Origin: a virus
Taxonomy: Duplodnaviria; Caudoviricetes
IMG/VR virus record: IMGVR_UViG_3300013947_000027
Coordinates: 38,033 to 102,032 of that record
Direction: 5' to 3' (one strand)
Length of the DNA: 64,000 bases
The notes under the pieces are model-generated. The model did not search any database. It had not been told where the DNA came from and saw only the letters and a program-made list of their open reading frames with translations. The stretch's first letter is position 1, and each line of letters opens with the position of its first letter. A program made the position numbers and the translations under genes. Positions 977-64,000 of this stretch are shown piece after piece.

Positions 977-995
977 TTTTAGTCCTCCTTTCTTA

Positions 996-3793: not shown

Positions 3794-4336
3794 TCACTCT
3801 AGACTATTCAAGTACGCCATGAGCTGGTGCCAAATTTCAGCTTCTCTTGCATTGCGTCTCCAACCTCGAATCGTAAATAACCCGCCTTTACCGTTTCGAT
3901 CGTACGTACGATTCAACAACCTCCAGATCGCTTCATCGACAGTTCTCTTATTGAAATTGTAATCACTCATGGAACTCAGACCTAAACTGCTCACCATATC
4001 CCAAAACCATTGAGCAGTTCGATCTCCTTTCTCAGGATTGCACATGATGCGTTCCTCGCATTTAATCGCTAATGCGACCATCATCTCAAGAACACTGCAG
4101 GGCCCATCTAGACAGTATTCCATGCTTTCACAATTATGATAGACGCAATAGCGATATCTGAGTGCAATACCATCTCCTGCTCTGTTCTCATCATATGGAA
4201 CAAAATAGGTGAACTCAGCATCATGGAGGGATGCAAACAGCTTTCTATACGTGATAGATGGCGCAAAGCGTCCTCTGCACATAAGCTGATACATCCACTC
4301 AAAATAATCAGACTTTATCTGATCTTCAATTCTCAT
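3794..4336 (-). CDS. Hypothetical phage protein
   Basis: 180-aa ORF coupled to the upstream gene in the replication operon. Confidence 0.75.
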   Translation of the reverse strand: MRIEDQIKSDYFEWMYQLMCRGRFAPSITYRKLFASLHDAEFTYFVPYDENRAGDGIALRYRYCVYHNCESMEYCLDGPCSVLEMMVALAIKCEERIMCNPEKGDRTAQWFWDMVSSLGLSSMSDYNFNKRTVDEAIWRLLNRTYDRNGKGGLFTIRGWRRNAREAEIWHQLMAYLNSLE

Positions 4337-5685: not shown

Positions 5686-6624
5686 TCAAATGTAATCGAG
5701 GATATTGCCGATGCAGTTGAAGTCAAGAATGATACTCTTCTCACGACCATTGACAAAGTCACATGCCTTTTCGTTATTCACGTCGAAGATACCGAAGTCG
5801 ACAAAGTTATCACCGATGGAGTTATCATCAGTGTAAACCCAGCCTGCGATCTGACCATATGCGGTTCTAGGTGCACCAACCATGTCATAGACTTCATTCA
5901 GAGTAAGGATACCGTTCATTTTGAGCTTGTCATTAGCCCAGTTCTGCTGCTGAATCAGGAAGACCTTGTTCAGTTCAGCGTTTCTAGTCCAACCAGTGTT
6001 GCCTTCACAGAACACAATAGAATACATGCTATGTGCTGTATTAGGATCGACTACCTCGACAGTCTTCTTAACAGTGGTTTCCTTGCCATCTTCGTCAACA
6101 ACAGTTTCTTCGACTTCCTTAGCCTTAATGCCGAAACGAAGCTCGCGATCAAGATCTTTACCGAATCTATCAACTAGGCGACCGCGGTACTCCTTGAAGC
6201 TAGTAGCTACATTCGTGAGTGCAGCAGCCAGTGCAATGTTACGCTTACGTAGGATATGGTTGGAGCCAAGCATACAGCCAATAGAAGCAACACCAAGAGC
6301 AACAGACGGACCATAAAGCTTAACGAACTTCAGACCAGTCTGCACATAGGTAATCGTCAGATCCTTCTTAGCAATTTCCTCAGTATATTCTTCTCCGTCA
6401 GAAGTATGGAGACCCTTGCCAACGCTCTCATGGATCTTGTCGATAGTATCCTTGGCTTCATCAACAATATCGTTTACCTTAGTAGTAGCCTTACATGCCA
6501 TAACTGCACTCGTCACAATACCGACGACGCCAGTAACAGCCAGAATTTCAGGGCTATGCTTCTTGAACTTGAAGCCAGCCTTATGGAAAGATCTACTTAC
6601 CTTGCTAATAAGTTCAGTTTTCAT
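5686..6624 (-). CDS. DUF6353-like membrane-anchored phage protein, paralogue 1
   Basis: KKHSPEIL..G..G..A..AT N-terminus and LNEVYD..G...GW...LDF C-terminus, shared with the 7949 and 8984 ORFs. Confidence 0.75.
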   Translation of the reverse strand: MKTELISKVSRSFHKAGFKFKKHSPEILAVTGVVGIVTSAVMACKATTKVNDIVDEAKDTIDKIHESVGKGLHTSDGEEYTEEIAKKDLTITYVQTGLKFVKLYGPSVALGVASIGCMLGSNHILRKRNIALAAALTNVATSFKEYRGRLVDRFGKDLDRELRFGIKAKEVEETVVDEDGKETTVKKTVEVVDPNTAHSMYSIVFCEGNTGWTRNAELNKVFLIQQQNWANDKLKMNGILTLNEVYDMVGAPRTAYGQIAGWVYTDDNSIGDNFVDFGIFDVNNEKACDFVNGREKSIILDFNCIGNILDYI

Positions 6625-6659: not shown

Positions 6660-7304
6660 TCAAAGCGGCAATGCTCTAGGCATTTCAATCTTGTAGCCAT
6701 CTCGAGTTCTAACAACTCTTGCATTGCGAATGTTCGTCCAACCATACTTGTTATCTGTGTAGTCACCGGTGATGCCTACCAGATCGTACAGGTCAGCAAC
6801 TCGAACTGCGTCATACTGCTCAATCATTTCGTCCATACGAGATAGGACAGACTCTGCTTCTCCACGAGATTCAAGAACAATATCATCATAGCTGTAACCA
6901 GTTGTAGTTCTGGTATTGCCATAGGACCGTTCGTCTCGTCTACTGATGCTGTTGTAGTCTCTGTAAGAGACCTTATCAGAAGTGGGGCGCTTACTGCCAG
7001 AACCGCCACGACCTCCAAACAGAGTCATATCGAGAGCGCCCACAACAAGGTCGTACAGAGCCTTCTTGATGGATGGGACGATCACATCAAATACTACATA
7101 ATTCTTGACATTAGCTGCGTCTTCCGTGATGAAAACGTCTGTCAGCTTACGTGTATTATTTTTCTTAGTCTTTACTTTTCCGTGAATGATCTTCTCCGCT
7201 CGCTTTCCCTCAGCCAGAGACTGCTTATCGTCACGCTTATTTCGGCTTCCATGGGAGTTGTCAGGCAAGTTATCATACAGCTTGGTAACATCGGGTTCAC
7301 CCAT
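6660..7304 (-). CDS. Hypothetical phage protein
   Basis: 214-aa ORF with AGGAGG RBS. C-terminal VADLYDLVG...YGW resembles the DUF6353-like C-terminus. Confidence 0.75.
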   Translation of the reverse strand: MGEPDVTKLYDNLPDNSHGSRNKRDDKQSLAEGKRAEKIIHGKVKTKKNNTRKLTDVFITEDAANVKNYVVFDVIVPSIKKALYDLVVGALDMTLFGGRGGSGSKRPTSDKVSYRDYNSISRRDERSYGNTRTTTGYSYDDIVLESRGEAESVLSRMDEMIEQYDAVRVADLYDLVGITGDYTDNKYGWTNIRNARVVRTRDGYKIEMPRALPL

Positions 7305-7309
7305 TAAAT

Positions 7310-7507
7310 TTATCCTCCTTCAACAATTTTCAACTTTCCAGGAATAGTAATCTTTGATCTAGGCATTCTTCCAGTTTCCATTTTGAATTGATATGCCAGA
7401 TTAGAGCGAGCTTTCTTTTCGGTCGGTGCACGAGTAGAAGCCGACCAACGATCTGCAATGATCCTTTCAAACTCTAAAACAGGACCATTGTAGTAATATA
7501 GGTTCAT
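7310..7507 (-). CDS. Hypothetical protein
   Basis: 65-aa ORF with AGGAG RBS. Confidence 0.7.
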   Translation of the reverse strand: MNLYYYNGPVLEFERIIADRWSASTRAPTEKKARSNLAYQFKMETGRMPRSKITIPGKLKIVEGG

Positions 7508-7527
7508 ATGTCGCTTTCTCCTACAAC

Positions 7528-7570
7528 AAAAAAAGAAAAAGAGGAGAACACCCTGTTACGGATGCTCTCC
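7528..7570 (-). terminator. Intrinsic terminator of cassette 1
   Basis: GGAGAGCATCC-GTAACA-GGGTGTTCTCC followed by a U-tract. Confidence 0.85.
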
Positions 7571-7634
7571 ACTTGCCGAATTCCAAATAACTTACTGCTC
7601 AAAGTAGGTTATCCTTGGAACGCTCTCACGGCTA

Positions 7635-7877
7635 TTACTCGTCAACTACCACGTAGTCTTCTTCCGCCTCGGCCTTCTGTGCTTCCTTCTTGGCCTTGTA
7701 CTTGCTGACAAGCTTCTTGCCCAGCTTGATCAGACCGCCAGTAGCGATCGTCAGGCCGGCACCAATCAGCATTGCCACGCCAGTACTCATGCCAGAGTTC
7801 TGCACCTCTTCGACCTCGTCGTTGTTCTCGACTTCCTCGATAGCAGTCTCGTCATAGTTCATGATCTCGTTTTCCAT
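7635..7877 (-). CDS. Small acidic single-TM protein (cassette 1)
   Basis: AAGGAG RBS; GVAMLIGAGLTIATGGLI segment. Confidence 0.8.
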   Translation of the reverse strand: MENEIMNYDETAIEEVENNDEVEEVQNSGMSTGVAMLIGAGLTIATGGLIKLGKKLVSKYKAKKEAQKAEAEEDYVVVDE

Positions 7878-7920
7878 AGTTTTTAACTCCTTTTAGAAAT
7901 AATAATTATTGGTATTTCTG

Positions 7921-7948
7921 CCATAATAGGGCCTGTAAATTTCGCGAA
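7921..7948 (-). promoter_or_regulatory. 28-bp conserved promoter-like motif, copy 1
   Basis: TTCGCGAAATTTACAGGCCCTATTATGG. Confidence 0.8.
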
Positions 7949-8737
7949 TTATCTACAGCTATTAAATCCGCGTTTCGGAGCAACCGCATAGTCAATGACA
8001 ATACAAGGCACACCGTCCGTATCAAGTTGCGCACTAAAATCAAGCTCGATCAATCCACGAGCAACATTCCAACCAAGATCATCACCAATGCTCACACCAT
8101 CTAGATCAAGAGCATAGTAGAATTCGTTAAGAGAAATATAATCCTCACCGTTGACCATTTGTCGATTAAGCTCATTAACATTTCTCTTAATTGTCTCGAT
8201 GTCAGATACGAATCTTCGCTTAGTGATAGTGTCAAAGCATCGAGTCTTACCGTTCCCACTCACAATAATTGTGGAAGGATTTGCAGGTTCTTTCTCGATA
8301 CGATCCTTAGCAAGCTTCTCACGGATTGTCTGCTCTTTCTTCTCGCCAACAGTCTCAATAACCTTCTGCTTATACTCTGCAAGCGCAGTTGTGGACAGGT
8401 TGTATGCTGTAGCAAGAGCAGCATTGCGCTTAGAATGCACCGAGCTCGCACCAATCAGGCATGCAACAGAGGTGACACCCGTAATTGCTGCAGGAATGTA
8501 GGGTTTCCATGCTGCCTTAACCGTTTCAAGCTTAGTGAGATGATCGTTATGTTCGTTTTCAGCTTTCTTATCTTCAGCCTCAGCAATAAGATCCAAAGCC
8601 TTCGGTGTAGCAGAAACTGCCAGGATTGTTGTGGTGATCATGCCAGCGATACCGAGTCCAGTTAAAATCTCTGGACTATGGTTAGATAAAACTGTTTTAA
8701 CGCTTTTAAACAGTGCTGCCATGTTGGGTTTATTCAT
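7949..8737 (-). CDS. DUF6353-like protein, paralogue 2
   Basis: NHSPEILTGLGIAG...ISLNEFY...LGW. Confidence 0.75.
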   Translation of the reverse strand: MNKPNMAALFKSVKTVLSNHSPEILTGLGIAGMITTTILAVSATPKALDLIAEAEDKKAENEHNDHLTKLETVKAAWKPYIPAAITGVTSVACLIGASSVHSKRNAALATAYNLSTTALAEYKQKVIETVGEKKEQTIREKLAKDRIEKEPANPSTIIVSGNGKTRCFDTITKRRFVSDIETIKRNVNELNRQMVNGEDYISLNEFYYALDLDGVSIGDDLGWNVARGLIELDFSAQLDTDGVPCIVIDYAVAPKRGFNSCR

Positions 8738-8775
8738 ATACTTTCCTCCTTAAAATTAAAAGTAAAAGAGCCCGA

Positions 8776-8937
8776 TTAGGACCCTTTTACCTGTTTAGTA
8801 GTGACTTCCTTCACTTCTTTAGCGACAGCTTCTTTCATCTCATCGCTAGATATCTTGCTATTGATGAGGGTAGCAACCCCCGCCAACACAAGTGCTCCAA
8901 GCTTAAGACCTGTCTTGATAGCCTTCGTTTTATCCAT
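8776..8937 (-). CDS. Small single-TM protein, 53 aa (cassette 2; MDKTKAIKTGLKLGALVLAGVATLI...)
   Basis: Hand-translated; AAAGGAG RBS directly after motif copy 2; stop lies in the terminator hairpin at 8764-8788. Confidence 0.8.
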   Translation of the reverse strand: MDKTKAIKTGLKLGALVLAGVATLINSKISSDEMKEAVAKEVKEVTTKQVKGS

Positions 8938-8955
8938 GATAGAACACACTCCTTT

Positions 8956-8983
8956 CCATAATAGTGGCTGTGAATCTCGCGAA
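8956..8983 (-). promoter_or_regulatory. 28-bp motif, copy 2
   Basis: TTCGCGAGATTCACAGCCACTATTATGG. Confidence 0.8.
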
Positions 8984-9796
8984 CTAGTATTCGAGGTAGC
9001 CTATGACTGGTTCCATTGGAAAATGAATAATCGTGCATTCTAATCCTTGACTTTCTTCAGATTCCTCGTCAATGACTATCTCCTCGTAGTCAAATTCGAT
9101 CCATGGATGCCAGTACATTTCCTCGATCTGACCGCAAGCCCATCCTACATTTTCATACTCTGGCTTCTGCTCCAAACCAAGAAGTTCGTAATATTCGTTG
9201 AGACAAACAGCGCCATTAACGTACATAGCTCTATTAGCCTCATACTGAGCCCACATGACAGTCTCTTTGGTTGATTCGAAGTATCTTCCTGAATAGAAAT
9301 CGTAGAATAGTTCTTTGTTATTGTCAGATAAATCTACGTCACCCGCATACTTGTCTTTAGCGATCTCGCCACGAATGTTCTTGCCAGCTTCTTCTCCATA
9401 CAATTCGTCCGTTTTCTTCTTATACTCCTTATAAGAATTGTCAAGTAACGCATACGCACTCATAAGAGACGCCTGCTGACGTTTACTAATAACGTTAGAT
9501 CCGAATATGCACACAATTGTAGCAGCTCCAGTAATTATAGATGGGATGTAAACTGGGCCGGCTATTTTGATTTTTTCCCATTTGGTTAATTCTTCTCCTT
9601 TCTTCTCTTTTGCATCTTCAAGTAACGATAATGCTTTCGGTGTTTCTTTGGCTACCATAACTGCTGTAGTTACTACTCCAGTTGCACCTATACAAGTTAA
9701 TATTGTAGATGCGTTACGTTTAATGAATTGTTGTAAATCCATTTCTTTCCACTCCTCGGGTTTAGGGTATGTGTCAAAAATAAAAGAGAGAATCAA
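8984..9796 (-). CDS. DUF6353-like protein, paralogue 3 (true start probably MDLQQF, a little downstream)
   Basis: RNASTILTCIGATG...VCLNEYY...VGW. Confidence 0.75.
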   Translation of the reverse strand: MILSFIFDTYPKPEEWKEMDLQQFIKRNASTILTCIGATGVVTTAVMVAKETPKALSLLEDAKEKKGEELTKWEKIKIAGPVYIPSIITGAATIVCIFGSNVISKRQQASLMSAYALLDNSYKEYKKKTDELYGEEAGKNIRGEIAKDKYAGDVDLSDNNKELFYDFYSGRYFESTKETVMWAQYEANRAMYVNGAVCLNEYYELLGLEQKPEYENVGWACGQIEEMYWHPWIEFDYEEIVIDEESEESQGLECTIIHFPMEPVIGYLEY

Positions 9797-9974
9797 TCAT
9801 TCCACTCGAAGGACGCCGATATTTCCCTCAGGCTCATGGTCAATCTTTCGATTGAGCTCATCTTTTCAGATCTAGCCTCGTTCATAATCTTTCGATTATT
9901 ATCTCCTTCCCGATGCGGTACCAATGATTGTTGGCCCTCCAACTTCACTGCCCTTTCGAGTGTTATATTCTCTC
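9782..9974 (-). ncRNA. Putative structured ncRNA A (cassette 3)
   Basis: 5'/3' closing helices GAGAGAAT/ATTCTCTC and CACTCGAA/TTCGAGTG, three GAAA-tetraloop hairpins and a 3' U-tract. Confidence 0.7.
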
Positions 9975-10000
9975 ATATTAGGGCCTGTAAATTTCGCGAA
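9973..10000 (-). promoter_or_regulatory. 28-bp motif, copy 3
   Basis: TTCGCGAAATTTACAGGCCCTAATATGA. Confidence 0.8.
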
Positions 10001-10036
10001 CCGTTGATTAGGCGAAAATAAAAAAGAAGGAGCTCA

Positions 10037-10225
10037 TTACTGAGCTTCCTCCTTCTCGTCAGAACTTGCAATGAGGTTCTCCATCTTCTTACTGTTGTAC
10101 TTGAACCATGCAACTTCTGCGCCGACGATGGCCGCATTCAACAGGATCGCACCTTTCCAATGCTTCTTGTAGAATCGGCCAGTCTCCTTACAGAGTTCAC
10201 CATAGTCCTTCCAAAACTGTTTCAT
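10037..10225 (-). CDS. Small protein (cassette 4; MKQFWKDY...)
   Basis: AAGGAGG RBS before the ATG at 10225; terminator hairpin overlaps the stop. Confidence 0.8.
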   Translation of the reverse strand: MKQFWKDYGELCKETGRFYKKHWKGAILLNAAIVGAEVAWFKYNSKKMENLIASSDEKEEAQ

Positions 10226-10250
10226 TTTGAATTCCTCCTTTAATATTCTT

Positions 10251-10278
10251 CCATAATAGGAGCTGTAAATCTCGCGAA
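10251..10278 (-). promoter_or_regulatory. 28-bp motif, copy 4
   Basis: TTCGCGAGATTTACAGCTCCTATTATGG. Confidence 0.8.
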
Positions 10279-10311
10279 AAAAATAAAGAGAAGGAGTCCC
10301 TGTTATAGGAC

Positions 10312-10485
10312 TCACTTCTTCTTTCTAAGTCGCTTGACAATCGTAATGATCAGCCACACGATTAAGCCGAATACGATAAAGTCGCCAAACACGATGATAA
10401 ACCAGTTTCCTGCTGCAATAGAAGCAAACAAGCCAACCACCGCAACGGCGATTAACGCAACGAGCAAAATAATAAATGTGATCAT
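10312..10485 (-). CDS. Two-TM small protein, 57 aa (cassette 5; MITFIILLVALIAVAVVGLF...KRLRKKK)
   Basis: Hand-translated; AAGGAG RBS; terminator at 10291-10317. Confidence 0.8.
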   Translation of the reverse strand: MITFIILLVALIAVAVVGLFASIAAGNWFIIVFGDFIVFGLIVWLIITIVKRLRKKK

Positions 10486-10501
10486 TATTAATCAACTCCT
10501 T

Positions 10502-10529
10502 CCATAATAGGAGCTGTTAATGTCGCGAA
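10502..10529 (-). promoter_or_regulatory. 28-bp motif, copy 5
   Basis: TTCGCGACATTAACAGCTCCTATTATGG. Confidence 0.8.
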
Positions 10530-10531
10530 TT

Positions 10532-10891
10532 TTATATAAGCCGTCTATCAAAAGATGTTTCCCAGCGTTCTTTTGGCAATGGTTTCATCTTAAGACCCCA
10601 CATAATTTGCCTAATAGAGACCGTAGGATATAAGTTGTCAATACATTCTCCAGCACGTTCGTTAAAAAACTCCTCAAACCTGTTATGTAAATACAAGTCG
10701 TCAACTAACCACGGATCTATGTCCGTCCAATACGTCGATTTAGTCTCTTCGTCATATCTTTGCTGGATTACTGCAAGACCTTTCTCGTTTATTTTGAATA
10801 ACGTGCATGTATTATACACAGAATGATCACAAATATATGTGTCGCCATATATAGTTGAATAGATTTCAGGTTTCTTGTAGTGGTATCTCAC
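10532..10891 (-). CDS. Hypothetical phage protein
   Basis: 119-aa ORF, GTG start, AAAGGAG RBS. Confidence 0.7.
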   Translation of the reverse strand: MRYHYKKPEIYSTIYGDTYICDHSVYNTCTLFKINEKGLAVIQQRYDEETKSTYWTDIDPWLVDDLYLHNRFEEFFNERAGECIDNLYPTVSIRQIMWGLKMKPLPKERWETSFDRRLI

Positions 10892-10940
10892 ACTAGAGGG
10901 CTCCTTTCTGGAAAAATAGAAGGGGCCGAAGCCCCCGCTA

Positions 10941-11006
10941 TTACTTAGAACTCTTGCCGATCAAAAATACTCCGACCAACACTAATGTGATTCCAATCCA
11001 CAGCAT
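10941..11006 (-). CDS. 21-aa single-TM micropeptide MLWIGITLVLVGVFLIGKSSK (cassette 6)
   Basis: AAGGAGG RBS; followed by the GGGGC-TTCG-GCCCC terminator at 10912-10936. Confidence 0.75.
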   Translation of the reverse strand: MLWIGITLVLVGVFLIGKSSK

Positions 11007-11037
11007 TATATCATCCTCCTTGATTCTACATTCCGTT

Positions 11038-11065
11038 CCATAATAGGGCCTGTGAATCTCGCGAA
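11038..11065 (-). promoter_or_regulatory. 28-bp motif, copy 6
   Basis: TTCGCGAGATTCACAGGCCCTATTATGG. Confidence 0.8.
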
Positions 11066-11075
11066 ATGCAAAATT

Positions 11076-11218
11076 AAAAGAAAGAGAGGCGGCTCACCTG
11101 TTAACCATTAAGTCACTCCGTACCTCGATAGCCGTCAGCTAAACCTTCAAGGGTGACACCTTATTTCAACGTCGCCGTTTGCACATTTATAACGGTTGTT
11201 TCCGTAACGTCTCTTTCT
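11076..11218 (-). ncRNA. Putative structured ncRNA B (cassette 7)
   Basis: Closing helix AGAAAGAGA/TCTCTTTCT plus U-tract; inner stems CCGTT/AACGG, GTCAC/GTGAC and TAGC/GCTA; no RBS-led ORF. Confidence 0.6.
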
Positions 11219-11244
11219 ATAATAGGGGCTGCTAATATCGTGAA
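11217..11244 (-). promoter_or_regulatory. 28-bp motif, copy 7 (degenerate)
   Basis: TTCACGATATTAGCAGCCCCTATTATAG. Confidence 0.7.
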
Positions 11245-11303
11245 TTGAATGCTCGGAGCAAAAAAGAAGAGGCCATGTTTCCACAGCCTCTGTCTTTCGT
11301 ACG

Positions 11304-11663
11304 TCAGTTCCTACTTCTAAAGTTGAATAACTTATCCATGAACTTCCGTCCCACAGTCGTGGTAACCGTGTTCTCATCCTCGAAGTACAAACTTGCCTTC
11401 ACGCCCCACAAGGTTACGCCGAGCGGCAGAACAATCGCACCAACGTCGATAAGATTCCTAATCAACCGAGCCTTGCGTTCCTCTTTCATCTGTTTCTCGT
11501 TCTGAGATTCAGACGATTCGAGTTTCTCAATCTCGATTGCTCGATCCATCAACTTAGTGACACTGTTCACCACAGCTTCGTATTCCTTACTGGTAGGATC
11601 CAGCTCGTTTGCAGCATCAAGTCTTTCCTCGATTTCCATCTGCAGCTTCGTAGTCATACTCAT
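11304..11663 (-). CDS. Coiled-coil protein with C-terminal hydrophobic segment (cassette 8)
   Basis: AAGGAG RBS; terminator at 11260-11292. Confidence 0.8.
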   Translation of the reverse strand: MSMTTKLQMEIEERLDAANELDPTSKEYEAVVNSVTKLMDRAIEIEKLESSESQNEKQMKEERKARLIRNLIDVGAIVLPLGVTLWGVKASLYFEDENTVTTTVGRKFMDKLFNFRSRN

Positions 11664-11701
11664 ATCGATTCACTCCTTTAATTTCGTCGAACTTATACGT
11701 C

Positions 11702-11729
11702 CCATAATAGAGCCTGTTAATCGCGCGAA
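11702..11729 (-). promoter_or_regulatory. 28-bp motif, copy 8 (overlaps the 3' end of the upstream gene)
   Basis: TTCGCGCGATTAACAGGCTCTATTATGG. Confidence 0.8.
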
Positions 11730-11974
11730 AGATAGTTCTTATCCACAACTTTGAGCATAACAACATTCTTCTTAGAAATAGAATCAATTGTAGCTCCTTG
11801 AAGTTCCAAGAACGGTCTCGGCGGCTCGTCGGGTTCTGAGCGATCAATTCTGAGATAGCCAACTGATTGTTCCTCGACTGTTTTCCTCATTCGTCCCATG
11901 CTAATAAAGATACCGACGAATACTCCGATGATTGCTCCGACCAGCAGAGCGATTCCAATTGCCAAATACTCCAT
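11717..11974 (-). CDS. Small protein with N-terminal TM helix
   Basis: MEYLAIGIALLVGAIIGVFVGIFI; AAAGGAG RBS. Confidence 0.8.
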   Translation of the reverse strand: MEYLAIGIALLVGAIIGVFVGIFISMGRMRKTVEEQSVGYLRIDRSEPDEPPRPFLELQGATIDSISKKNVVMLKVVDKNYLSRD

Positions 11975-12192
11975 ACTTTCTCCTTTCGAAAATTGAAATG
12001 TTTTTCAAAAATTCCTTGGCGGGAAATTTTCGCCTTATAAAAGTAGCATTGTTTTCCGTAACCTACATTCGGATTTTCTAAGCTAGAATAAAAGCGTCTA
12101 ATCTAGGTTAGACGAGCAAAGAGAAGAAAAAACTAAAAGACCTTGATGTAATCTCAATCTTTTAGTCTATTTTGTGTTTGCGTGCATTTGCA

Positions 12193-12312
12193 TTAGCCGA
12201 TATGTACGTCATTAGTTTCATCCTCCATTTTCTTCAGCTCTTCCTTTTTGGTGAGCTTTTCAACGAAAGATAAACCAACATATATCGTAGCTAAAAAAGC
12301 AATATACATCAT
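12193..12312 (-). CDS. 39-aa single-TM peptide (cassette 9; MMYIAFLATIYVGLSFVEKL...)
   Basis: AAAGGAG RBS. An overlapping 16-aa ORF (12162-12212, GGAGG RBS) follows, then a terminator at about 12125-12166. Confidence 0.7.
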   Translation of the reverse strand: MMYIAFLATIYVGLSFVEKLTKKEELKKMEDETNDVHIG

Positions 12313-12333
12313 AGTAAACACACTCCTTTCTTC

Positions 12334-12361
12334 TCATAATATGGAGTGTTAATTTCGCGAA
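12334..12361 (-). promoter_or_regulatory. 28-bp motif, copy 9
   Basis: TTCGCGAAATTAACACTCCATATTATGA. Confidence 0.8.
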
Positions 12362-12434
12362 TTGTAACTAAAAAAGAAAAGGGAATCTGTTAAGACTCCC
12401 TAATCTTTGGTTAGTGGTTGAATTTATGCTAATT

Positions 12435-12515
12435 TTAGAAAATGAATTCGATCGACTGGACACAGCCGTATTCGTCAACAGTGGTAATCTGTTCCGGATA
12501 GCTAATGCTAGTCAT
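12435..12515 (-). CDS. 26-aa peptide MTSISYPEQITTVDEYGCVQSIEFIF (cassette 10)
   Basis: GGAGGAG RBS; terminator GGGAGTC-TTAACA-GATTCCC at 12370-12400. Confidence 0.65.
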   Translation of the reverse strand: MTSISYPEQITTVDEYGCVQSIEFIF

Positions 12516-12567
12516 AGTTAACTCCTCCATATGTAAAATTTAGTTTTTAAATTCCAACCATTTCTTC

Positions 12568-12595
12568 CCATAATATGGAGTGTTAATTTCGCGAA
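12568..12595 (-). promoter_or_regulatory. 28-bp motif, copy 10
   Basis: TTCGCGAAATTAACACTCCATATTATGG; nearly identical to copy 9. Confidence 0.8.
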
Positions 12596-12601
12596 TTCAG
12601 C

Positions 12602-12820
12602 TTAATTAATTCTAGGTTTCTTTCTGTCGCAATAGAATACAGATTCTATTTTAGTCTTTCCTACAAAATATCTATAATCGAAATCGTACTTAGCAGGATT
12701 GAAAGTCCATATTCTTTCACGGCTACCGTCCTCATATATTACGACAATCTCTGCTGTGTCGAATCGTTTATTATTTATAAAACATTTTGAAACAATGTCA
12801 TATAATTTAGGATCCATCAA
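12602..12820 (-). CDS. Hypothetical protein
   Basis: 72-aa ORF coupled to the upstream gene. Confidence 0.7.
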   Translation of the reverse strand: MMDPKLYDIVSKCFINNKRFDTAEIVVIYEDGSRERIWTFNPAKYDFDYRYFVGKTKIESVFYCDRKKPRIN

Positions 12821-13251
12821 ATATTCCGCTCCCTTGTTTCATTTAGCAGCCAAAAGAACCTTCTGTATCTGTCATAGTACATGTCTTTTCCGCAAGGTAT
12901 TCCCATTGCAGTTCTTAAATAAATGTAAGACCGTTCCTCTGTCACTCCTTTTACAATATAGTCGTGCAAGTATGGGTCTGCCTCAAGCGCAGTCTTTTCA
13001 ATTAACTTAATGCGATCTGAATAAAATACTTTCATCATAGCTCTTTGAGCGATTGGATCACTATCGTTAGGGAAATTATTTGTAGGCGTTGCGTCAACCA
13101 TTGACAGTGGTGGATTCTCATTGGAAAGATCCGAGTAAATCTTTTTCCATTCGGGGTATTGTAAGCAGAAGTGCTTTAATTCGTAATATCGGTGCTTGCT
13201 GATCCAGTATTTGTTCTTTGGCGAAATTTCAGCTCTTATCACAGTTGCCAT
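12817..13251 (-). CDS. Putative transcriptional activator (RinA/ArpU-like)
   Basis: ELKHFCLQYPEWKK start and C-terminal HTH-like YYDRYRRFFWLL; lies in the cro operon. Confidence 0.55.
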   Translation of the reverse strand: MATVIRAEISPKNKYWISKHRYYELKHFCLQYPEWKKIYSDLSNENPPLSMVDATPTNNFPNDSDPIAQRAMMKVFYSDRIKLIEKTALEADPYLHDYIVKGVTEERSYIYLRTAMGIPCGKDMYYDRYRRFFWLLNETRERNI

Positions 13252-13390
13252 TTTGACTTTTCTCCTTCGTTTTATTCTTTCTACATTTCTCTGCTTTCTT
13301 TAAGAAAATAATAGTGGCTTCTTCAATCTTTGTTCGATCAACTTCGCCACGTATTCGAACAATCGCATTCTCATATCTGTATTCTTCTAT
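13229..13390 (-). CDS. 53-aa basic protein with non-canonical ATA start (or GTG 9 nt upstream)
   Basis: Hand-translated (I)EEYRYENAIVRIRGEVDR...; GAGGGTG RBS 6 nt before ATA. Confidence 0.5.
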   Translation of the reverse strand: MEEYRYENAIVRIRGEVDRTKIEEATIIFLKKAEKCRKNKTKEKSQNGNCDKS

Positions 13391-13408
13391 AAATGTCACC
13401 CTCTAAAG

Positions 13409-13776
13409 TTGCATTCAACGCAATGGCTAAAATAAGAAAATCTCAAGTGCTTCTTCATCTGTAAGTTCAAGTACGTCTTTCATCTGAATCGCTTCTCCGA
13501 TTGTTATCTTTAGTGGAGCTCGGAGCTTACGATATAACGTTGGACCAGTCATCCCAATAATTTCAGCTAACTGCTCCACATTCATTTCTCGTTCAACGAT
13601 TTTTGCTTTAAGTTTGTTCATGTTCATTTATGTCACCTCTTTCCGTTGCGTTCCGTGCAACACATACAAGATAGCATCGTTTTACTTTTTATGTCAATAT
13701 TTTTTTGCGTAAAATGCAACGTGTTTTATTCTCAGTTTTAAATAATTTGCATACTTGCAATTCTTAGTGTTATACT
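13409..13776. promoter_or_regulatory. Genetic switch: TTGC-N7-GCAA operators and divergent sigma-A promoters
   Basis: Operators at 13409-13423, 13646-13660, 13705-13719 and an N6 variant at 13747-13760. Leftward TTGACA (13697-13692) and TGnTATCTT; rightward TGnTATACT (13768-13776). Confidence 0.7.
13427..13627 (-). CDS. Cro-like XRE HTH regulator
   Basis: MNVEQLAEIIGMTGPTLYRKL; divergent from the repressor. Confidence 0.85.
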   Translation of the reverse strand: MNMNKLKAKIVEREMNVEQLAEIIGMTGPTLYRKLRAPLKITIGEAIQMKDVLELTDEEALEIFLF

Positions 13777-13795
13777 ATCAACTGAAAGAAAGGAA

Positions 13796-14362
13796 GTGCA
13801 TGATATGAACATAGGAAATCGAATAAAAGAAAGAAGAAAAGAACTAAATATGTCAGTTGAGGAATTAGCTAAAAGACTGAATAAAAATCGAACAACCGTT
13901 TATCGCTATGAGAAAGGAGATATAGAAAACCTTCCAATCGACATTCTTGATCCACTAGCAAAAGCATTAGAGACAACTCCGGCGTACTTAATGGGTTGGG
14001 ATAATAAGCCAAATAAAGACACTGCTACAATTGGCGAGTTGCTTAAGATGATGAGAACTAATCGAAACATGACTATCGAGGAATATTCACGAGAGATAGG
14101 TATATCTGCTGAGGATTTACGTATGTATGAATCCGGAGAAAAATACATACCTCTTTCTGTAATCCACACAATTGCGGAATACTATCGTCTTTCACTGGAG
14201 AGTGTCAGAGTAGGTAACCCTGAGGTTAATAAAGAAGGAAATATTCGCCTCGAACGCTTTAAGACTTGGGCTGAAAATTTTGGTGACCTGGAACTTACTG
14301 ATGAGGAGCATGACAAGATTGTTGAGTACACGAAATTCCTAATCTACATAAGAGAAAAATAA
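13796..14362 (+). CDS. CI-like repressor with two tandem XRE HTH domains
   Basis: IKERRKELNMSVEELAKRL...YRYEKG and LKMMRTNRNMTIEEYSREIG...MYESG. Confidence 0.85.
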   Translation: MHDMNIGNRIKERRKELNMSVEELAKRLNKNRTTVYRYEKGDIENLPIDILDPLAKALETTPAYLMGWDNKPNKDTATIGELLKMMRTNRNMTIEEYSREIGISAEDLRMYESGEKYIPLSVIHTIAEYYRLSLESVRVGNPEVNKEGNIRLERFKTWAENFGDLELTDEEHDKIVEYTKFLIYIREK

Positions 14363-14489
14363 AAGAGAATGTGTAGTCTTGTACAGTTCATTTCCTGTCC
14401 GAGAGTCGCTCGGTCTTATTTCTTATATGACGGCATCTCAGCCGACGGGACTTTCACCCGTAACTCATTACTGCTACTTCATTTTCTCC
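14361..14489 (-). ncRNA. Putative structured ncRNA C (cassette 11)
   Basis: Closing GAGAA..ATG/CATTCTC and GTAG/CTAC; hairpins ACGGG-TGAAAGT-CCCGT, CGGC-TGAGAT-GCCG, CCGAG/CTCGG and ACAG/CTGT; U-tract. Confidence 0.7.
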
Positions 14490-14515
14490 ATAATAGAAGC
14501 TGTTATTTACGCGAA
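14488..14515 (-). promoter_or_regulatory. 28-bp motif, copy 11
   Basis: TTCGCGTAAATAACAGCTTCTATTATGG. Confidence 0.8.
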
Positions 14516-14578
14516 GGGAGGTGATGCCTATGTAATCACAGCGCCGCAACGAGAGTAAACTAACAGGAGGAATAGAAA

Positions 14579-16159
14579 GTGACAATATTCGAAAAGAACG
14601 GGATAATCGATAACTCTATGCCTACCCGCATGGATAAATATGTGATTTATTTGCGCAAATCTCGTGCAGATGTAGAAGCCGAGAAACTAGGCGAAGGAGA
14701 AACCTTAGCTCGGCATAAAAAGATACTTACAGAGCTTGCTGCAAGAAAAGGCTTGTATATCGAGAAAATATACGAAGAAATTGTCTCTGGGGAAACCATC
14801 GAGGCTAGACCTGAGATCCAGAAGATGATCAAAGAATGCTATGAGGGCAAATATAAAGGAATAATTATTGTCGAGGTAACTCGTCTGTCTCGTGGTAACC
14901 AGGGTGATGCTCAGACTATTCTAGATTGCTTGAAATATTCGAATCGTAATAATGGGGTGTTAGTAATCACACCGACTAAAACATACGACGTTGCTCACTC
15001 TCAAGAAGATGAAGAATACATGGAGTTTGAATTGTTTATGTCTCGTAGAGAATATAAGATGATTCAGAAGCGTATGGATCGTGGTCGTAAGCAAGCAGTT
15101 GTAGAAGGAAATTTTATGGGAAGCTACAGACCATATGGATATGATATTGTCAAAACTAAAACAAGCAGAACACTTATACCCAATGAAAATGAAGCACCGA
15201 TTGTTAAACAAATGTTTGACTGGTCTGCTAATGAAAATTTGACACCATATAAGATTGCTCAGCGATTAGAGAATATGGGTATTCCTACTTATTATGGAGA
15301 TGGCGAATGGTCGAAAGATACTGTTAAAACTATTTTGACGAATCCTACGTATATGGGGAAAGTTAAGTGGAACGATCGTATGCAAATCAAAACTATGGTT
15401 GACGGAGAGCTTGTAACATCAAGACCTCGATCGAATCATACTGATCACTACATGGAATATGATGGTAAACATAAGAAGTATGCACTAATAGACGAAGAGA
15501 CTTTTAATAAAGTAAGATCTCGATTCGGAGTTGATAGAACAAAGTCAGGGCTTAAGTTAACAAATATATTGGCTGGAATATTCAGGTGCAAAAACTGTGG
15601 ACGTGCAATGGGCTATCAATCATATAAACAACGTAAAACGCCAACTGCTCCAAGATACTTACATGCCGAGTCTCAAAAATGTAAAGTGAAATCAGTTGTA
15701 GCCGATGATGTTTATAAAGCTCTGATTCATGCTCTTAAAATGTATATAGAAGACTTCGAGGTTAAACTTGACAATCTTCCAGAGACAAATGAAAATGAAA
15801 TAGATAAGCAGATAGAGATATTGAATCGAGAGACAGCTAAAATAAAAAGGAAGCTATCTAAACTCTTTGATTCCTGGGAGGATGAGGCTATTACAGACAA
15901 CGAATTTGTCGAACGTAAAGCAGTGCATAATAATCGTATTGAGAAAATTAAGCAACAGATTGAAGATTTGGAATACTCAATTCCAGAAAAAGAAGAATAT
16001 CAAGAAAAGATCATTCTTCTATCTGAAGCTCTTAAAGCTATCAGAGACGACTCATTGGATGCTGATATCAAGAACGAGTATCTTAAGAGAATCATTGATA
16101 CAATAGAGTTTAGTAGAGAAAATAACTCGGAATTTATACTTGATATAACCCTACACTAA
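14579..16159 (+). CDS. int: Large serine integrase
   Basis: YLRKS catalytic Ser motif, VSG, RLSR, PYGY, recombinase domain, CKNCG zinc ribbon and coiled coil. Confidence 0.95.
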   Translation: MTIFEKNGIIDNSMPTRMDKYVIYLRKSRADVEAEKLGEGETLARHKKILTELAARKGLYIEKIYEEIVSGETIEARPEIQKMIKECYEGKYKGIIIVEVTRLSRGNQGDAQTILDCLKYSNRNNGVLVITPTKTYDVAHSQEDEEYMEFELFMSRREYKMIQKRMDRGRKQAVVEGNFMGSYRPYGYDIVKTKTSRTLIPNENEAPIVKQMFDWSANENLTPYKIAQRLENMGIPTYYGDGEWSKDTVKTILTNPTYMGKVKWNDRMQIKTMVDGELVTSRPRSNHTDHYMEYDGKHKKYALIDEETFNKVRSRFGVDRTKSGLKLTNILAGIFRCKNCGRAMGYQSYKQRKTPTAPRYLHAESQKCKVKSVVADDVYKALIHALKMYIEDFEVKLDNLPETNENEIDKQIEILNRETAKIKRKLSKLFDSWEDEAITDNEFVERKAVHNNRIEKIKQQIEDLEYSIPEKEEYQEKIILLSEALKAIRDDSLDADIKNEYLKRIIDTIEFSRENNSEFILDITLH

Positions 16160-16184
16160 AATTGTGTGGGATAATTTTTGCCTG

Positions 16185-16236
16185 TGATGTTCATCATGAG
16201 TGTGTTACTTTTATAGCGCACCCTTGATGCACATCA
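16185..16236. other. Putative attP site
   Basis: 52-bp imperfect inverted repeat (18/23 arm match) centred on TT at 16210-16211, 25 bp after the integrase stop. Confidence 0.7.
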
Positions 16237-16260
16237 TGGGGTTAATAGGAGGAAATATAA

Positions 16261-16512
16261 ATGAGAATTGTATGGAAAGATAGTTCGCCTCACACTAAAC
16301 CTTGGATAACCCTACAGTACAGAGACCATGTTGTGAGCCAATACGGAAAAGGATGGATAACGAATGTACCAGGAGATGACAACATTTACTTTCCTAGAGA
16401 ATGCGCTCTAAACGCAATCGACGAAATGCTAGGCGGCAAGACTCGTAAAGCTAATTCAAAGAGACATGAGCTTGGAATAAAAATAATTGGGAGAAAGGAC
16501 GATGCGTCATGA
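16261..16512 (+). CDS. Hypothetical protein, paralogue of the next gene
   Basis: MRIVWKDS...DDNIY..CALNAIDE. Confidence 0.8.
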   Translation: MRIVWKDSSPHTKPWITLQYRDHVVSQYGKGWITNVPGDDNIYFPRECALNAIDEMLGGKTRKANSKRHELGIKIIGRKDDAS

Positions 16513-16766
16513 GAATAATTTGGAGAGATAGTTGCACACCTAGAGAATATGAACCAATCAAATACAGAAATATTTACATTTTTGGATCTCCTGACGGTTG
16601 GGAAGTAAATATAAAAGAAGATGATAATCTATATAAAAATCATTATTGCGCTAAAAATGCTATAGATGAATATTATGGAGATTTCGGTGAGCATGGTGAT
16701 AAAAAGCGTAAGTCATATGGAATCCAAATCATAGGAGCAAAAGATAGCACGAGGATGAGTTTATGA
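16509..16766 (+). CDS. Hypothetical protein, paralogue of the previous gene
   Basis: MRIIWRDS...DDNLY..CAKNAIDE. Confidence 0.8.
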   Translation: MRIIWRDSCTPREYEPIKYRNIYIFGSPDGWEVNIKEDDNLYKNHYCAKNAIDEYYGDFGEHGDKKRKSYGIQIIGAKDSTRMSL

Positions 16767-16867
16767 ATAAGAAACTAGAAAAGCAAATACAAGAATATTT
16801 GAAGCAAACGCAGTACTGCAAAACAAAGGAACGAATACTGAGACAAAAAGAAGAGGCCCTGTCGTAA
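16763..16867 (+). CDS. 34-aa basic peptide (MNKKLEKQIQEYLKQ...)
   Basis: ATGA overlap with the upstream stop; ends in the terminator. Confidence 0.45.
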   Translation: MNKKLEKQIQEYLKQTQYCKTKERILRQKEEALS

Positions 16868-16886
16868 TTGACAGAGCCTTTTCCTT
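16845..16886. terminator. Bidirectional terminator
   Basis: AAGAGGCCCTGTC...GACAGAGCCTTTT between convergent genes. Confidence 0.75.
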
Positions 16887-17053
16887 TACTTCTTCGAAAA
16901 CTTGGCCTCGATATTCTTCTTAGCTTTCTTTGCTGTCGTTACAACCGCATTGCGAGCTTCAGGCACGAGTGCGACTACCGTAACAATCGGCAGTACAATC
17001 TGCGTAAGCCATAAGCGAGCTTCCCGACTAGCTTCAATATGCTTATATATCAT
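16886..17053 (-). CDS. Small single-TM protein (cassette 12; MIYKHIEASREARLW...)
   Basis: AAGGAGG RBS directly after motif copy 12. Confidence 0.8.
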   Translation of the reverse strand: MIYKHIEASREARLWLTQIVLPIVTVVALVPEARNAVVTTAKKAKKNIEAKFSKK

Positions 17054-17067
17054 AACAATTCCTCCTT

Positions 17068-17095
17068 CCATTAAAGGAGGTGTTAAATTCGCGAA
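17068..17095 (-). promoter_or_regulatory. 28-bp motif, copy 12
   Basis: TTCGCGAATTTAACACCTCCTTTAATGG. Confidence 0.75.
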
Positions 17096-17530
17096 TTAGA
17101 GGAATGAGTTTTCATTCAAGCATTTGGTATATGTAGTTTCAACATTCTTGATCGCAAGTTTTGCAATATTGTTCTTGAAGTCCGGGTGCTTTGCACAATA
17201 CAGCTCGTAATCAGAAATATCAGTTATGATCTGATCGAAGTGCTCTTTGCTATGCCGTTGTTTATGAAGAATCTCATCGCTGAAACGCAAAATTCTGGTT
17301 CTGCAATCATTCATTGCTTTCTCGTCACAAGACTTCTGCAATGTTGTAAGACCTTCCTCGAGTTTTGTAACTTTTGTAGACAAATCTTCATTCATCATTT
17401 TCCCGATTTTCTTAAGAATAGATGACCAAGGATTCCATTTGATCGGGGAAATCTGGATAAGTGACAGCAGTACAATAAGGATACCACATCCTCCGCCTGC
17501 AATAGTGGTTACCATTTCGGACGCACTCAT
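17096..17530 (-). CDS. Holin-associated membrane protein
   Basis: N-terminal TM, IQISPIKWNPWS, coiled coil; next to the holin. Confidence 0.65.
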   Translation of the reverse strand: MSASEMVTTIAGGGCGILIVLLSLIQISPIKWNPWSSILKKIGKMMNEDLSTKVTKLEEGLTTLQKSCDEKAMNDCRTRILRFSDEILHKQRHSKEHFDQIITDISDYELYCAKHPDFKNNIAKLAIKNVETTYTKCLNENSFL

Positions 17531-63809: not shown

Positions 63810-64000
63810 ATAGCTTGCTCCTCCTTTTTATAGGGTTTACAGGTGTTTGGCGTTATTTTCAAAGTTAATAGTAGGTGTTTCATAGTAGATTCACCTTGAT
63901 TAGAGTGGGTTTTAGCATAGTTTTTAGGGTCTATTTCGGACCATCCAGAAACCAAAAGTGAAAATGTTTTTGGAAAATGTCCCCCGGAGAAATATCAAAG

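Follow-up and report, generated by a model that had tools for sequence, protein, structure and literature searches.

A repeated 28-bp motif in a temperate gut siphophage as a candidate early promoter for the phage's own single-chain RNA polymerase

A 28-bp motif that recurs about 30 times in the genome of a temperate gut siphophage is probably read by the phage's own single-chain two-barrel RNA polymerase, a reading that we hold, from sequence comparison, at somewhat better than even. The motif would be the early/middle promoter of this phage. Its copies would switch on small early genes and RNAs, each promoter driving a short unit (a micropeptide, a small protein, a structured RNA or a tRNA set) that ends at an intrinsic terminator, and the reader would be the 1011-aa phage polymerase and not the host sigma-A holoenzyme.

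The phage genome is 102,032 bp in length, and the 64-kb window, i.e. the whole stretch of DNA that was analysed, is part of it. The motif is present 11 times in the window with three or fewer mismatches, where 0.00 copies are expected (100 shuffles), and a 12th copy at 17068-17095 has four mismatches; the 12 positions given in the initial annotation are thus borne out. Every copy in the window is on the minus strand. A scan of the whole genome upholds the array, although the 12 copies of the window are only a part of it: the genome has 29-31 copies, all co-oriented on the transcribed strand, and these span genome positions 4294 to 55127, which is the early/middle region only. In the same scan the structural operon and the late genes show no copy. 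The 14 nt between the TTCGCG box and the AT-rich hexamer, and the motifs adjoining stop codons at 7949, 8984, 10532 and 17096, are also as first described. The features are as follows (window coordinates).

17068-17095, minus strand: motif copy 12, adjoining the stop codon of a 144-aa gene (17096-17530)
16886-17053, minus strand: copy 12 cargo, 55-aa ORF with one hydrophobic segment; SD from motif position 27-29
16854-16879, minus strand: cassette 12 terminator, hairpin and T-run
14488-14515, minus strand: motif copy 11, antisense to cI and to the integrase gene, in the gap that separates the two
14350-14489, minus strand: RNA C (copy 11), ORF-less, closing helix from motif position 27, folding z -2.2
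13668-13697, minus strand: cro operon promoter, canonical sigma-A type (TTGACA, 18-nt spacer, TG, TATCTT)
12817-13251, minus strand: 144-aa protein phrog_11237 of the cro operon, in the lysogeny module; candidate activator of the initial annotation
12568-12595, minus strand: motif copy 10, directly after a 72-aa gene of the cro operon
12435-12515, minus strand: copy 10 cargo, 26-aa ORF; terminator 12380-12401
12334-12361, minus strand: motif copy 9
12193-12321, minus strand: copy 9 cargo, 42-aa membrane peptide; terminator 12095-12114
11702-11729, minus strand: motif copy 8, overlapping the stop codon of an 85-aa ORF (11717-11974)
11304-11663, minus strand: copy 8 cargo, 119 aa, one TM segment, phrog_15866; terminator 11268-11291
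11217-11244, minus strand: motif copy 7, three mismatches
11066-11218, minus strand: RNA B (copy 7), ORF-less, folding z -1.4
11038-11065, minus strand: motif copy 6
10941-11006, minus strand: copy 6 cargo, 21-aa membrane peptide; terminator 10921-10936
10532-10891, minus strand: 119-aa gene, phrog_17256, lacking its own motif; missing in relative L014
10502-10529, minus strand: motif copy 5, SD from motif position 27-29
10312-10485, minus strand: copy 5 cargo, 57-aa peptide with two TM segments; terminator 10294-10313
10251-10278, minus strand: motif copy 4
10037-10225, minus strand: copy 4 cargo, 62-aa ORF; terminator 10031-10046
9973-10000, minus strand: motif copy 3
9776-9974, minus strand: RNA A (copy 3), about 190 nt, ORF-less, several GAAA-loop hairpins, folding z -3.8
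8956-8983, minus strand: motif copy 2, adjoining the stop codon of a 270-aa gene
8776-8937, minus strand: copy 2 cargo, 53-aa membrane peptide; terminator 8760-8792
7921-7948, minus strand: motif copy 1, adjoining the stop codon of a 262-aa gene
7635-7877, minus strand: copy 1 cargo, 80 aa, one TM segment, phrog_18141; terminator 7543-7570

Nine of the motif-led units in the window carry an ORF. All nine ORFs are SD-led, with lengths of 21-119 aa, and six have a hydrophobic segment, which agrees with the small and mostly membrane ORFs of the initial annotation. The initial annotation had seen the cargos as possible effectors of host takeover or anti-defence; family searches gave no match of the cargos to any family of known function. 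Terminator-like hairpins are enriched in the window (18 versus 6.6 ± 3.1 expected); of the 14 that fall on the minus strand, most are at cassette ends, as the proposal that each cassette has its own terminator would have it. The remaining three units have no SD-led ORF, and in each the closing helix starts at exactly motif position 27 and the unit ends at a U-tract. They had been taken as three structured RNAs. All three do fold from position 27, but RNA A may be the leader of a 270-aa DUF6353-type gene and not a free RNA. RNA C belongs to the cassette that is antisense within the repressor-integrase operon, and this placement is correct; its U-tract overlaps the cI stop codon, and an Rfam search of RNA C gave no match.

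It is very improbable that the motif is not a promoter at all, i.e. that it is an RNA processing or binding site on read-through transcripts, or that it serves purely as a DNA site for recombination or regulation (a stoperator, for example). Such a site could account for copies that are all co-oriented with transcription, for TTCGCGAA, which is palindromic as protein-binding sites often are, and for the cassette indel junctions found in the motif. However, many copies directly follow intrinsic terminators, and the downstream units therefore need a promoter of their own. In addition, the motif is kept in lytic relatives that lack a repressor, and its AT-rich hexamer with a conserved purine run behind it at +1 to +4 is typical initiation-site anatomy.

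The initial annotation had pointed to the rest of the genome as the place for a DxDGD RNA polymerase, and the gene is found there, at genome positions 303-3338 and 35 kb beyond the window. It encodes a single chain of 1011 aa that matches PHROG 4291 with E = 0. The GADFDGD loop is at residues 545-551 and is invariant in 10 relatives. HTH domains are present at both ends of the chain, and the C-terminus matches Sigma70_r4_2; these domains, the C-terminal one resembling sigma region 4, could supply promoter recognition. On the double-psi beta-barrel fold of such enzymes, the top Foldseek hits are mostly two-barrel polymerases, including the ten best, with E-values of only 2e-3 to 1e-2 for a model that has a mean pLDDT of 64 and in which residues 223-411 are unresolved. 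Hits by name are P74 gp62, P32 gp64, QDE-1, RDR2, Pol IV and beta-prime. An HHpred match of the polymerase family to PF05183 has been reported (10.1101/842583). The family is present in 250 records of a collection of 50,697 phage records, and relatives recur in gut-derived metagenomic records. A motif copy with a hairpin behind it is located about 1 kb upstream of the polymerase operon, both here and in seven relatives.

Five other lineages that carry the polymerase show the same motif geometry, namely FP_oengus, Lactococcus phage 1706, Gordonia phage Gravy, Rhodococcus phage ReqiPepy6 and Arthrobacter phage Gordon, so that motif and polymerase are found together in six of six lineages, as expected of a cognate promoter. 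The shared layout is TCGC, N8, (T/A)ACA, N4, C/T, a TATAAT-like hexamer and a purine. The phage polymerase is favored as the reader because phages of widely different bacteria share this enzyme and, together with it, the motif at an unchanged spacing. A 55-nt actinophage motif, used as query against the 50,697 phage records, matches 123 of them (Gordonia 55, Streptomyces 42, Arthrobacter 21, Rhodococcus 4 and Caudovirus 1). The corresponding polymerase set is Gordonia 55, Streptomyces 54, Arthrobacter 95 and Rhodococcus 4. The motif matches fall within the polymerase set, and three host-strain counts (36, 15 and 18) are identical in both. Three of five motif-bearing IMG/VR records are without the polymerase gene; this is not decisive, because all three end exactly at the place where the gene is expected.

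The Gordonia cluster DJ phage Vardy has a 50-bp intergenic repeat in five copies, which has been read as a promoter with a sigma-70 −10 element (PMC9671010). This repeat is probably the same element as the Gravy motif, since the Gravy motif with its leader matches all 55 polymerase-carrying Gordonia records. As is the case here, it is found among small membrane-protein genes and terminators; unlike here, it was published without a link to the polymerase or to Firmicutes phages (PMC9671010). In print, the polymerase family was noted in 2010 and 2021 and the repeat, as sigma-70, in 2022, each by itself and never with a link between the two.

Transcription most likely starts right after the AT-rich hexamer, at motif position 27, which is a purine (G in 27 of 29 copies). 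This is suggested because SD sites, the closing helices of the RNAs and a tRNA-like gene begin at position 27-28. In 7 of 23 cassettes of this phage, and in 16 of 51 cassettes of its IMG/VR relatives, 0-4 nt separate the hexamer from the SD core. The SD core is at 0-1 nt in three of six cassettes of FP_oengus and within 5 nt in seven of nine of phage 1706. Two of the motif copies with a close SD are located directly behind terminators, in two further units motif position 27 is the first base of a terminator-like hairpin, and the tRNA-like gene, in FP_oengus, begins at position 28. These positions support the original proposal of a non-sigma-A promoter that would start right behind its hexamer. 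With the start at position 27, the recognition sequence would span about −26 to −1, with TTCGCG at −26 to −21, ACA at −14 to −12 and C-TATTAT at −7 to −1.

Promoters of the sigma-70/sigma-A type have a −35 hexamer 17 ± 1 bp upstream of the −10 element and a start 6-8 nt downstream of the latter; within the −10 element, conservation is strongest at A(−11) and T(−7). The motif differs from this pattern in that TTCGCG is 14 bp from the hexamer, and position 2 of the hexamer, the would-be −11 A, is the most variable (19 A, 9 T and 1 C in 29 copies); in FP_oengus this position is T in nearly all copies. The middle Ts at positions 3-4 are nearly invariant (28 of 29). A sigma-70 scan detects the cro promoter and just one motif copy, the latter as a weak 9/12 match in another register. 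That ordinary promoters are in use in the host can be seen from the cro operon, whose promoter is of the sigma-A type. A domain search to which control genomes responded found no Sigma70_r2 domain encoded in the phage genome.

A start by the holoenzyme 6-8 nt downstream is doubtful, because the SD sites, the helices and the tRNA-like gene follow the hexamer by only 0-2 nt, which is too close. We consider it unlikely, though well short of negligible, that the host RNA polymerase uses the motif by way of a phage factor that replaces −35 recognition or by an unusual geometry, and that the phage polymerase serves late genes only. At the middle promoters of T4, MotA and AsiA replace −35 recognition, and the conserved box 14 nt upstream of the hexamer is roughly in the geometry of a MotA box. 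The hexamer itself resembles a −10 element; it is TATTAT here and a perfect TATAAT in actinophages, e.g. Gravy and ReqiPepy6, and the actinophage repeat was read as a sigma-70 promoter with this −10 (PMC9671010). The phage polymerase gene is at the early/late boundary, at the far end of the early-to-late gene order, and YonO, the only studied relative in bacterial phages, transcribes late genes (PMC5467207), whereas the late genes here are without the motif. The −10-like hexamer, the place of the gene and the YonO precedent also weigh against the phage polymerase as the reader. In its favor over the host enzyme, the motif is kept in phages of Actinobacteria and of Firmicutes alike, and the polymerase is the only conserved DNA-binding protein reported for the group (10.1101/842583).

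The initial annotation had proposed the 144-aa protein at 12817-13251 as a required activator, and a dedicated activator or sigma-like factor would suit its location, a little upstream of the first cassette and within the first operon driven by sigma-A, a position that it also has in FP_oengus. Its structural matches, i.e. the Q21 antiterminator (Z 5.6) and sigma region 4 domains (Z 4.2-5.0), are weak and below the level that is meaningful for helical proteins, and Foldseek gave nothing. With tblastn, matches are confined to four gut-phage records; the actinophage and Lactococcus genomes in which the motif is retained gave none. Furthermore, record G002 has lost the gene together with int, cI and cro, and G005 retains only the last 51 residues, but both still have 9-17 motif copies. 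Judged from these two natural variants, the protein is dispensable for the motif system, and a role as its activator is highly improbable.

Cassettes are exchanged among relatives as had been anticipated, with whole cassettes gained, lost or swapped at the fixed motifs, and at least one indel junction is inside the motif. L014 is without exactly one unit (motif, RNA B and terminator) that is present in L008, with the junction inside the motif. At the position of the copy 4 cargo, L008 has one more cassette, a paralogous one, and the RNA A body is replaced by unrelated elements in relatives. Since the genome has about 30 co-oriented copies of this 28-bp element, whole units could be added, deleted and swapped when copies recombine with each other.

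The polymerase may also travel in the virion and fire the motif promoters on entry; this is suggested by the deposited annotation of the phage 1706 orthologue, orf75, as a 'structural protein', and by that annotation only. Against this, a prophage under induction would start without a virion enzyme. We propose, tentatively and as a possibility that falls short of even, a host-independent early system in which the polymerase is injected from the virion, the HTH domains substitute for sigma, the promoter of about 26 bp is kept across Actinobacteria and Firmicutes, and this promoter is also the recombination site of micropeptide, ncRNA and tRNA cassettes. The 250-record polymerase family now has a concrete candidate promoter with a predicted start site. 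If this promoter assignment is confirmed, the two would form a compact orthogonal polymerase-promoter pair, the functioning of related phages in hosts of different phyla would be explained, and the motif would mark out a large set of micropeptides and structured RNAs, each tagged by the promoter, that are made as infection begins.

The T4-type PeSL cassettes are promoter-early stem-loop units in hyperplastic regions. There, as here, small variable ORFs lie between repeated units of promoter and stem-loop, by way of which cassettes are shuffled; exchange at the repeats that bound variable ORFs is seen here in the unit loss of L014 and in other indels. The PeSL promoters are host sigma-70 early promoters, whereas the promoter here is not of the sigma-A type, and the cargos here also include structured RNAs and tRNAs. 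Promoters of the T7 type are similar in having a contiguous recognition sequence of about 26 bp that ends at +1, with an AT-rich segment before a purine-rich start, here GGAAG or GAGAA. However, the candidate enzyme is predicted to be of an unrelated fold, and a PF00940 search, for which the control was uninformative, detected no T7-like polymerase.

Two-barrel RNA polymerases of other phages include the enzymes of the jumbo phages AR9 and phiKZ and the gp66 enzyme of crAss-like phages. YonO, from the temperate Firmicutes phage SPbeta, is likewise a single-chain two-barrel DNA-dependent RNA polymerase, its promoter is still undefined, and PMC5467207 gives promoter finding by YonO-like single-chain polymerases as an open question. 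According to the same paper, YonO transcribes the late genes together, in a single operon that starts at one site upstream of yonK, as against about 30 early units here, and the passages on YonO there report no HTH modules for it. The two enzymes belong to different YonO-like families, the one here to the '1706 family' of PMC2919709. Thermus phage P23-45 has a virion enzyme (gp96) and a non-virion enzyme (gp64), so that one two-barrel enzyme is delivered with the virion (10.1101/2022.12.01.518664). Systems of this type resemble the present one in that early genes are preceded by copies of a conserved phage-specific motif, which lies directly before the start (a predicted one here) and is tied, here probably, to a phage two-barrel enzyme; P74 gp62 and P32 gp64 are among the Foldseek hits of the enzyme here. 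They differ in that the present enzyme has HTH modules at either end of its single chain and would read a longer, bipartite motif, in that the polymerase family crosses host phyla, and in that the link between enzyme and motif is here a probable one, drawn from sequence comparison.

The TTCGCGANATTNACAGNNNCTATTATGG pattern has 11 matches with three or fewer mismatches in the window, all on the minus strand, and none in shuffled sequences. A twelfth copy of the 28-bp motif, at window positions 17068–17095, has four mismatches, and the twelve co-oriented copies listed in the initial annotation are all recovered. Four copies adjoin the stop codons of upstream genes, as had been stated for core genes. 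Nine are followed by open reading frames of 21–119 aa led by a Shine-Dalgarno (SD) sequence, six of which display a hydrophobic segment. The other three lead into stretches that have no SD-led open reading frame and fold into closed structures. The cargo is thus as first described, i.e. nine small open reading frames and three ORF-less structured RNAs. Each cassette had also been assigned its own terminator. Terminator-like hairpins are indeed enriched at window positions 7300–17300 (18 versus 6.6 ± 3.1 expected); 14 of the 18 are on the minus strand, mostly located at cassette ends. The first observation is confirmed and extended: the whole genome has 29 motif copies with six or fewer mismatches (31 by a looser pattern), all on the transcribed strand between genome positions 4294 and 55127. 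The whole-genome motif search finds no copies in the structural operon.

Rfam searches at gathering and E-value thresholds assign no family to the three ORF-less RNAs, and a single tRNA is the only match. RNA A, which follows motif copy 3 (window 9776–9974, minus strand), is about 190 nt long, displays several GAAA-loop hairpins (z = -3.8), has no Rfam match, and its closing helix also serves as its terminator. Outside the window, motif copies at genome positions 4294–4321, 20964–20991 and 31271–31298 are directly followed by a terminator-like hairpin and not by a gene. A role as attenuators or 5′ stabilisers is possible for these hairpins; one of the three copies lies ahead of the polymerase operon, at a position kept in seven relatives.

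The array was proposed to be a swappable library of cargos. The related genome L014 is without RNA B (the unit after motif copy 7), where exactly one motif, cargo and terminator unit is missing and the junction is inside the motif; L014 is also without the 119-aa gene at window positions 10532–10891. L008 has one extra cassette. In the place of the RNA A body, unrelated elements are found in relatives (L008, L011 and L014; L010 and L013). This loss, gain and replacement of cassettes bears out the proposal. PHROG searches of the small cargos assign no function.

Per-position counts were taken over the 29 genome copies, with positions numbered along the motif and the AT-rich final hexamer ending just before position 27. 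Positions T2, C3, C5, C14, A15, T21, A25 and T26 are invariant, and G4, G6, T23 and T24 nearly so. Position 27 is G in 27 of 29 copies, and positions 28–30 are almost always purines. The closing helices of all three ORF-less RNAs start exactly at position 27 and end at a U-tract, and two more units (genome 31298 and 20991) have a terminator-like hairpin starting at position 27. The SD core is 0–4 nt past the hexamer in 7 of 23 cassettes here and in 16 of 51 in IMG/VR relatives, 0–1 nt past it in three of six cassettes of the relative FP_oengus, and within 5 nt in seven of nine of Lactococcus 1706. Two motif copies with the SD core close to the hexamer sit directly behind terminators. The FP_oengus genome also has a tRNA-like gene (L003:2910–3006) that starts at motif position 28. 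A holoenzyme start 6–8 nt past the hexamer would cut into these SD sites, helices and the tRNA-like gene. Thus, judging from sequence, the motif is very probably a promoter with its start at position 27, in agreement with the initial placement of the start right after the hexamer and not 6–7 nt downstream. The FP_oengus tRNA-like gene displays an odd anticodon loop, and ARAGORN reports it as "tRNA-???".

Within the hexamer, conservation is lowest at position 2 (19 A, 9 T, 1 C), which a sigma factor would read as -11 A. The distance from TTCGCG to the hexamer is 14 nt, as first reported, versus 17 nt for sigma-A, and a domain search shows no Sigma70_r2 domain encoded in the phage. From these features and the crowding past the hexamer we conclude that the promoter would not be of the sigma-A type. 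The host uses canonical sigma-A promoters, as shown by the cro operon, whose promoter is an ordinary TTGACA-18-TATCTT with a TG upstream of the TATCTT.

Two other assignments of the motif were rejected. For sigma-54 geometry the motif lacks the GG/GC dinucleotides at -24/-12, and L5-type stoperators are at odds with persistence of the motif in lytic relatives without a repressor.

A DxDGD RNA polymerase, sought elsewhere in the genome, is found outside the window:

Genome 303–3338, minus strand: predicted polymerase, 1011 aa

The protein hits PHROG 4291, a family carrying the label "RNA-dependent RNA polymerase", with E = 0, and its GADFDGD sequence is invariant across ten relatives. The C-terminus is a Sigma70_r4_2-type HTH and the N-terminus an HTH-like segment. 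PDB sequence searches with the protein and with its profile matched the HTH ends only. An AlphaFold model from 10 sequences is of moderate quality (pLDDT 64); Foldseek with this moderate model gives two-barrel polymerases as the ten best and most of the top matches (E 2e-3 to 1e-2), including Thermus phage P74 gp62, P32 gp64, QDE-1, RDR2, Pol IV and bacterial beta-prime. The family has been described in print, as the "1706 family" among the YonO-like proteins (PMC2919709) and as the HTH-flanked putative polymerase marking a supercluster that unites actinophages with Lactococcus 1706 and FP_oengus (10.1101/842583). Promoters go unmentioned in the latter paper, and PMC5467207 gives the promoter of YonO, the SPbeta polymerase, as still undefined.

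A small open reading frame directly after the polymerase gene (L001:3–299, minus strand) continues across the record ends into window positions 63934–64000. A small open reading frame is also found after the polymerase in 1706, Gravy, ReqiPepy6, FP_oengus and Gordon, and could encode an accessory factor. In 1706, where the polymerase gene is orf75, the 448-bp gap upstream of it (L006:3640–4040) has several CTATCACGAAAAAACTTCGGGAAAACTTCGGGATT repeats which resemble iterons, perhaps of an origin or packaging site.

A search for over-represented words in five published relatives gave, in every one, a repeat with the geometry of the motif.

Repeats in the published relatives
FP_oengus: about 15 copies of CGCGAAAAAtNCAGnnnnCTTTATGG
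Lactococcus 1706: 11 copies of TTTTACAtAnnCTATAGTAG, with TCGCA or TCCACA before
Gordonia Gravy: 10 copies of TCGCAGAAATTACACGTCCTATAATGAG
Rhodococcus ReqiPepy6: 11 repeat copies
Arthrobacter Gordon: 6 repeat copies

The common frame is TCGC, N8, (T/A)ACA, N4, C/T, a TATAAT-like hexamer and a purine, with identical spacing throughout, and in each genome the repeats occupy the region of small genes that lies behind the tail genes. A 55-nt query of the Gravy motif and leader against 50,697 phage records gives 123 records (Gordonia 55, Streptomyces 42, Arthrobacter 21, Rhodococcus 4, Caudovirus 1). The polymerase set in the same collection has Gordonia 55, Streptomyces 54, Arthrobacter 95 and Rhodococcus 4; the motif counts per genus are equal or lower, and three host-strain counts match exactly between the sets. 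The polymerase is absent from three of five motif-bearing IMG/VR records, all truncated exactly where its gene belongs: G002 starts just inside the gene after the polymerase operon, G005 starts at the terminase gene, and G004 breaks off in the middle region, 800 bp from a motif copy.

A dedicated transcription system, with a phage RNA polymerase or an activator, had been proposed. On this co-occurrence the predicted two-barrel polymerase is the probable reader of the motif, and the 144-aa protein at window positions 12817–13251, the candidate activator, is not retained. This all-helical protein belongs to a family of more than 7000 metagenomic members and shows a weak likeness to the Q21 antiterminator and sigma region 4; Pfam and Foldseek give nothing, and a PDB sequence search gives noise only. 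It is not found in the actinophage or Lactococcus relatives. Its gene is deleted in G002 along with int, cI and cro, and truncated in G005, and both keep the motif array. Thus the protein is part of the lysogeny module and is not required by the motif system. A role as an antiterminator helping the prophage to reach the polymerase gene is possible, and is only a lead. In G002 the deletion (about 43317–43326; L030–L032) is clean and removes 3.4 kb, the two sides overlapping by 10 nt at the junction, and G005 (L037–L039) has also lost int, cI and cro at about 35375–35527. Both may be virulent derivatives.

The phage is a temperate siphophage and its record (102,032 bp, of which the window is bases 38033–102032) probably represents a closed circle opened at an arbitrary point, since one open reading frame spans the two ends. 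It encodes cI, cro, a serine integrase, a holin, terminase, a DUF859 siphovirus protein, NrdD/NrdG, dUTPase, thymidylate synthase and a primase-polymerase. A 3110-aa open reading frame is presumably the tape-measure protein, by size and position. No phage record matches the region by megablast. The primase-polymerase (PHROG 4210; window 458–3764 and L002:18202–19497) is split into parts of 922 aa (profile 1–923) and 431 aa (920–1293) with an HNH endonuclease gene (window 458–1063) between them; insertion of a homing endonuclease or an intron may account for the split. A DUF6353/PHROG 2152 membrane protein has three paralogues (window 5686–6624, 7949–8737 and 8984–9796), and the phage records with this family almost coincide with those of the polymerase (243 versus 250). 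Strand-specific words are also present: genome-wide, the transcribed strand has 29 copies of TGATATTT and the other strand 2, and for TCAAAATGG the counts are 20 versus 0. FP_oengus has TGATATTT 31 versus 0, many inside genes, and CATATTT and ATATTTG are abundant in Gravy.

The operon of VRR-Nuc, Cas4 and the polymerase is preceded, at a distance of about 1 kb, by a motif copy with a hairpin after it, both here and in seven relatives; therefore the polymerase gene itself carries the signal. Our whole-genome sigma-A scan, which was uninformative, gave no clear host promoter before the polymerase or late genes. The 1706 orthologue, orf75, is labelled "structural protein" in the original GenBank record, a label repeated in Rhodococcus phage records and which may reflect virion proteomics. 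If so, the polymerase would be injected along with the DNA and act on the early promoters, which would also account for the location of its gene at the early/late boundary. Delivery with the virion, for which the deposited 1706 annotation is the one source, is a tentative and somewhat doubtful reading, and does not account for the start in an induced prophage, which would have no virion enzyme.

The virion-delivered enzyme of P23-45 enters with the DNA and fires early promoters (10.1101/2022.12.01.518664), and the role proposed for the present polymerase would be the same by analogy. In print, the repeat is reported once, for the cluster DJ phage Vardy, as a 50-bp motif with a sigma-70 -10 element (PMC9671010), and as far as our literature search shows the link between motif and polymerase is absent. 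A phage polymerase with cognate promoters, and cassette shuffling like that of the T4 promoter-early stem-loop (PeSL) cassettes, is an already known kind of system, of which the present phage would carry a variant.
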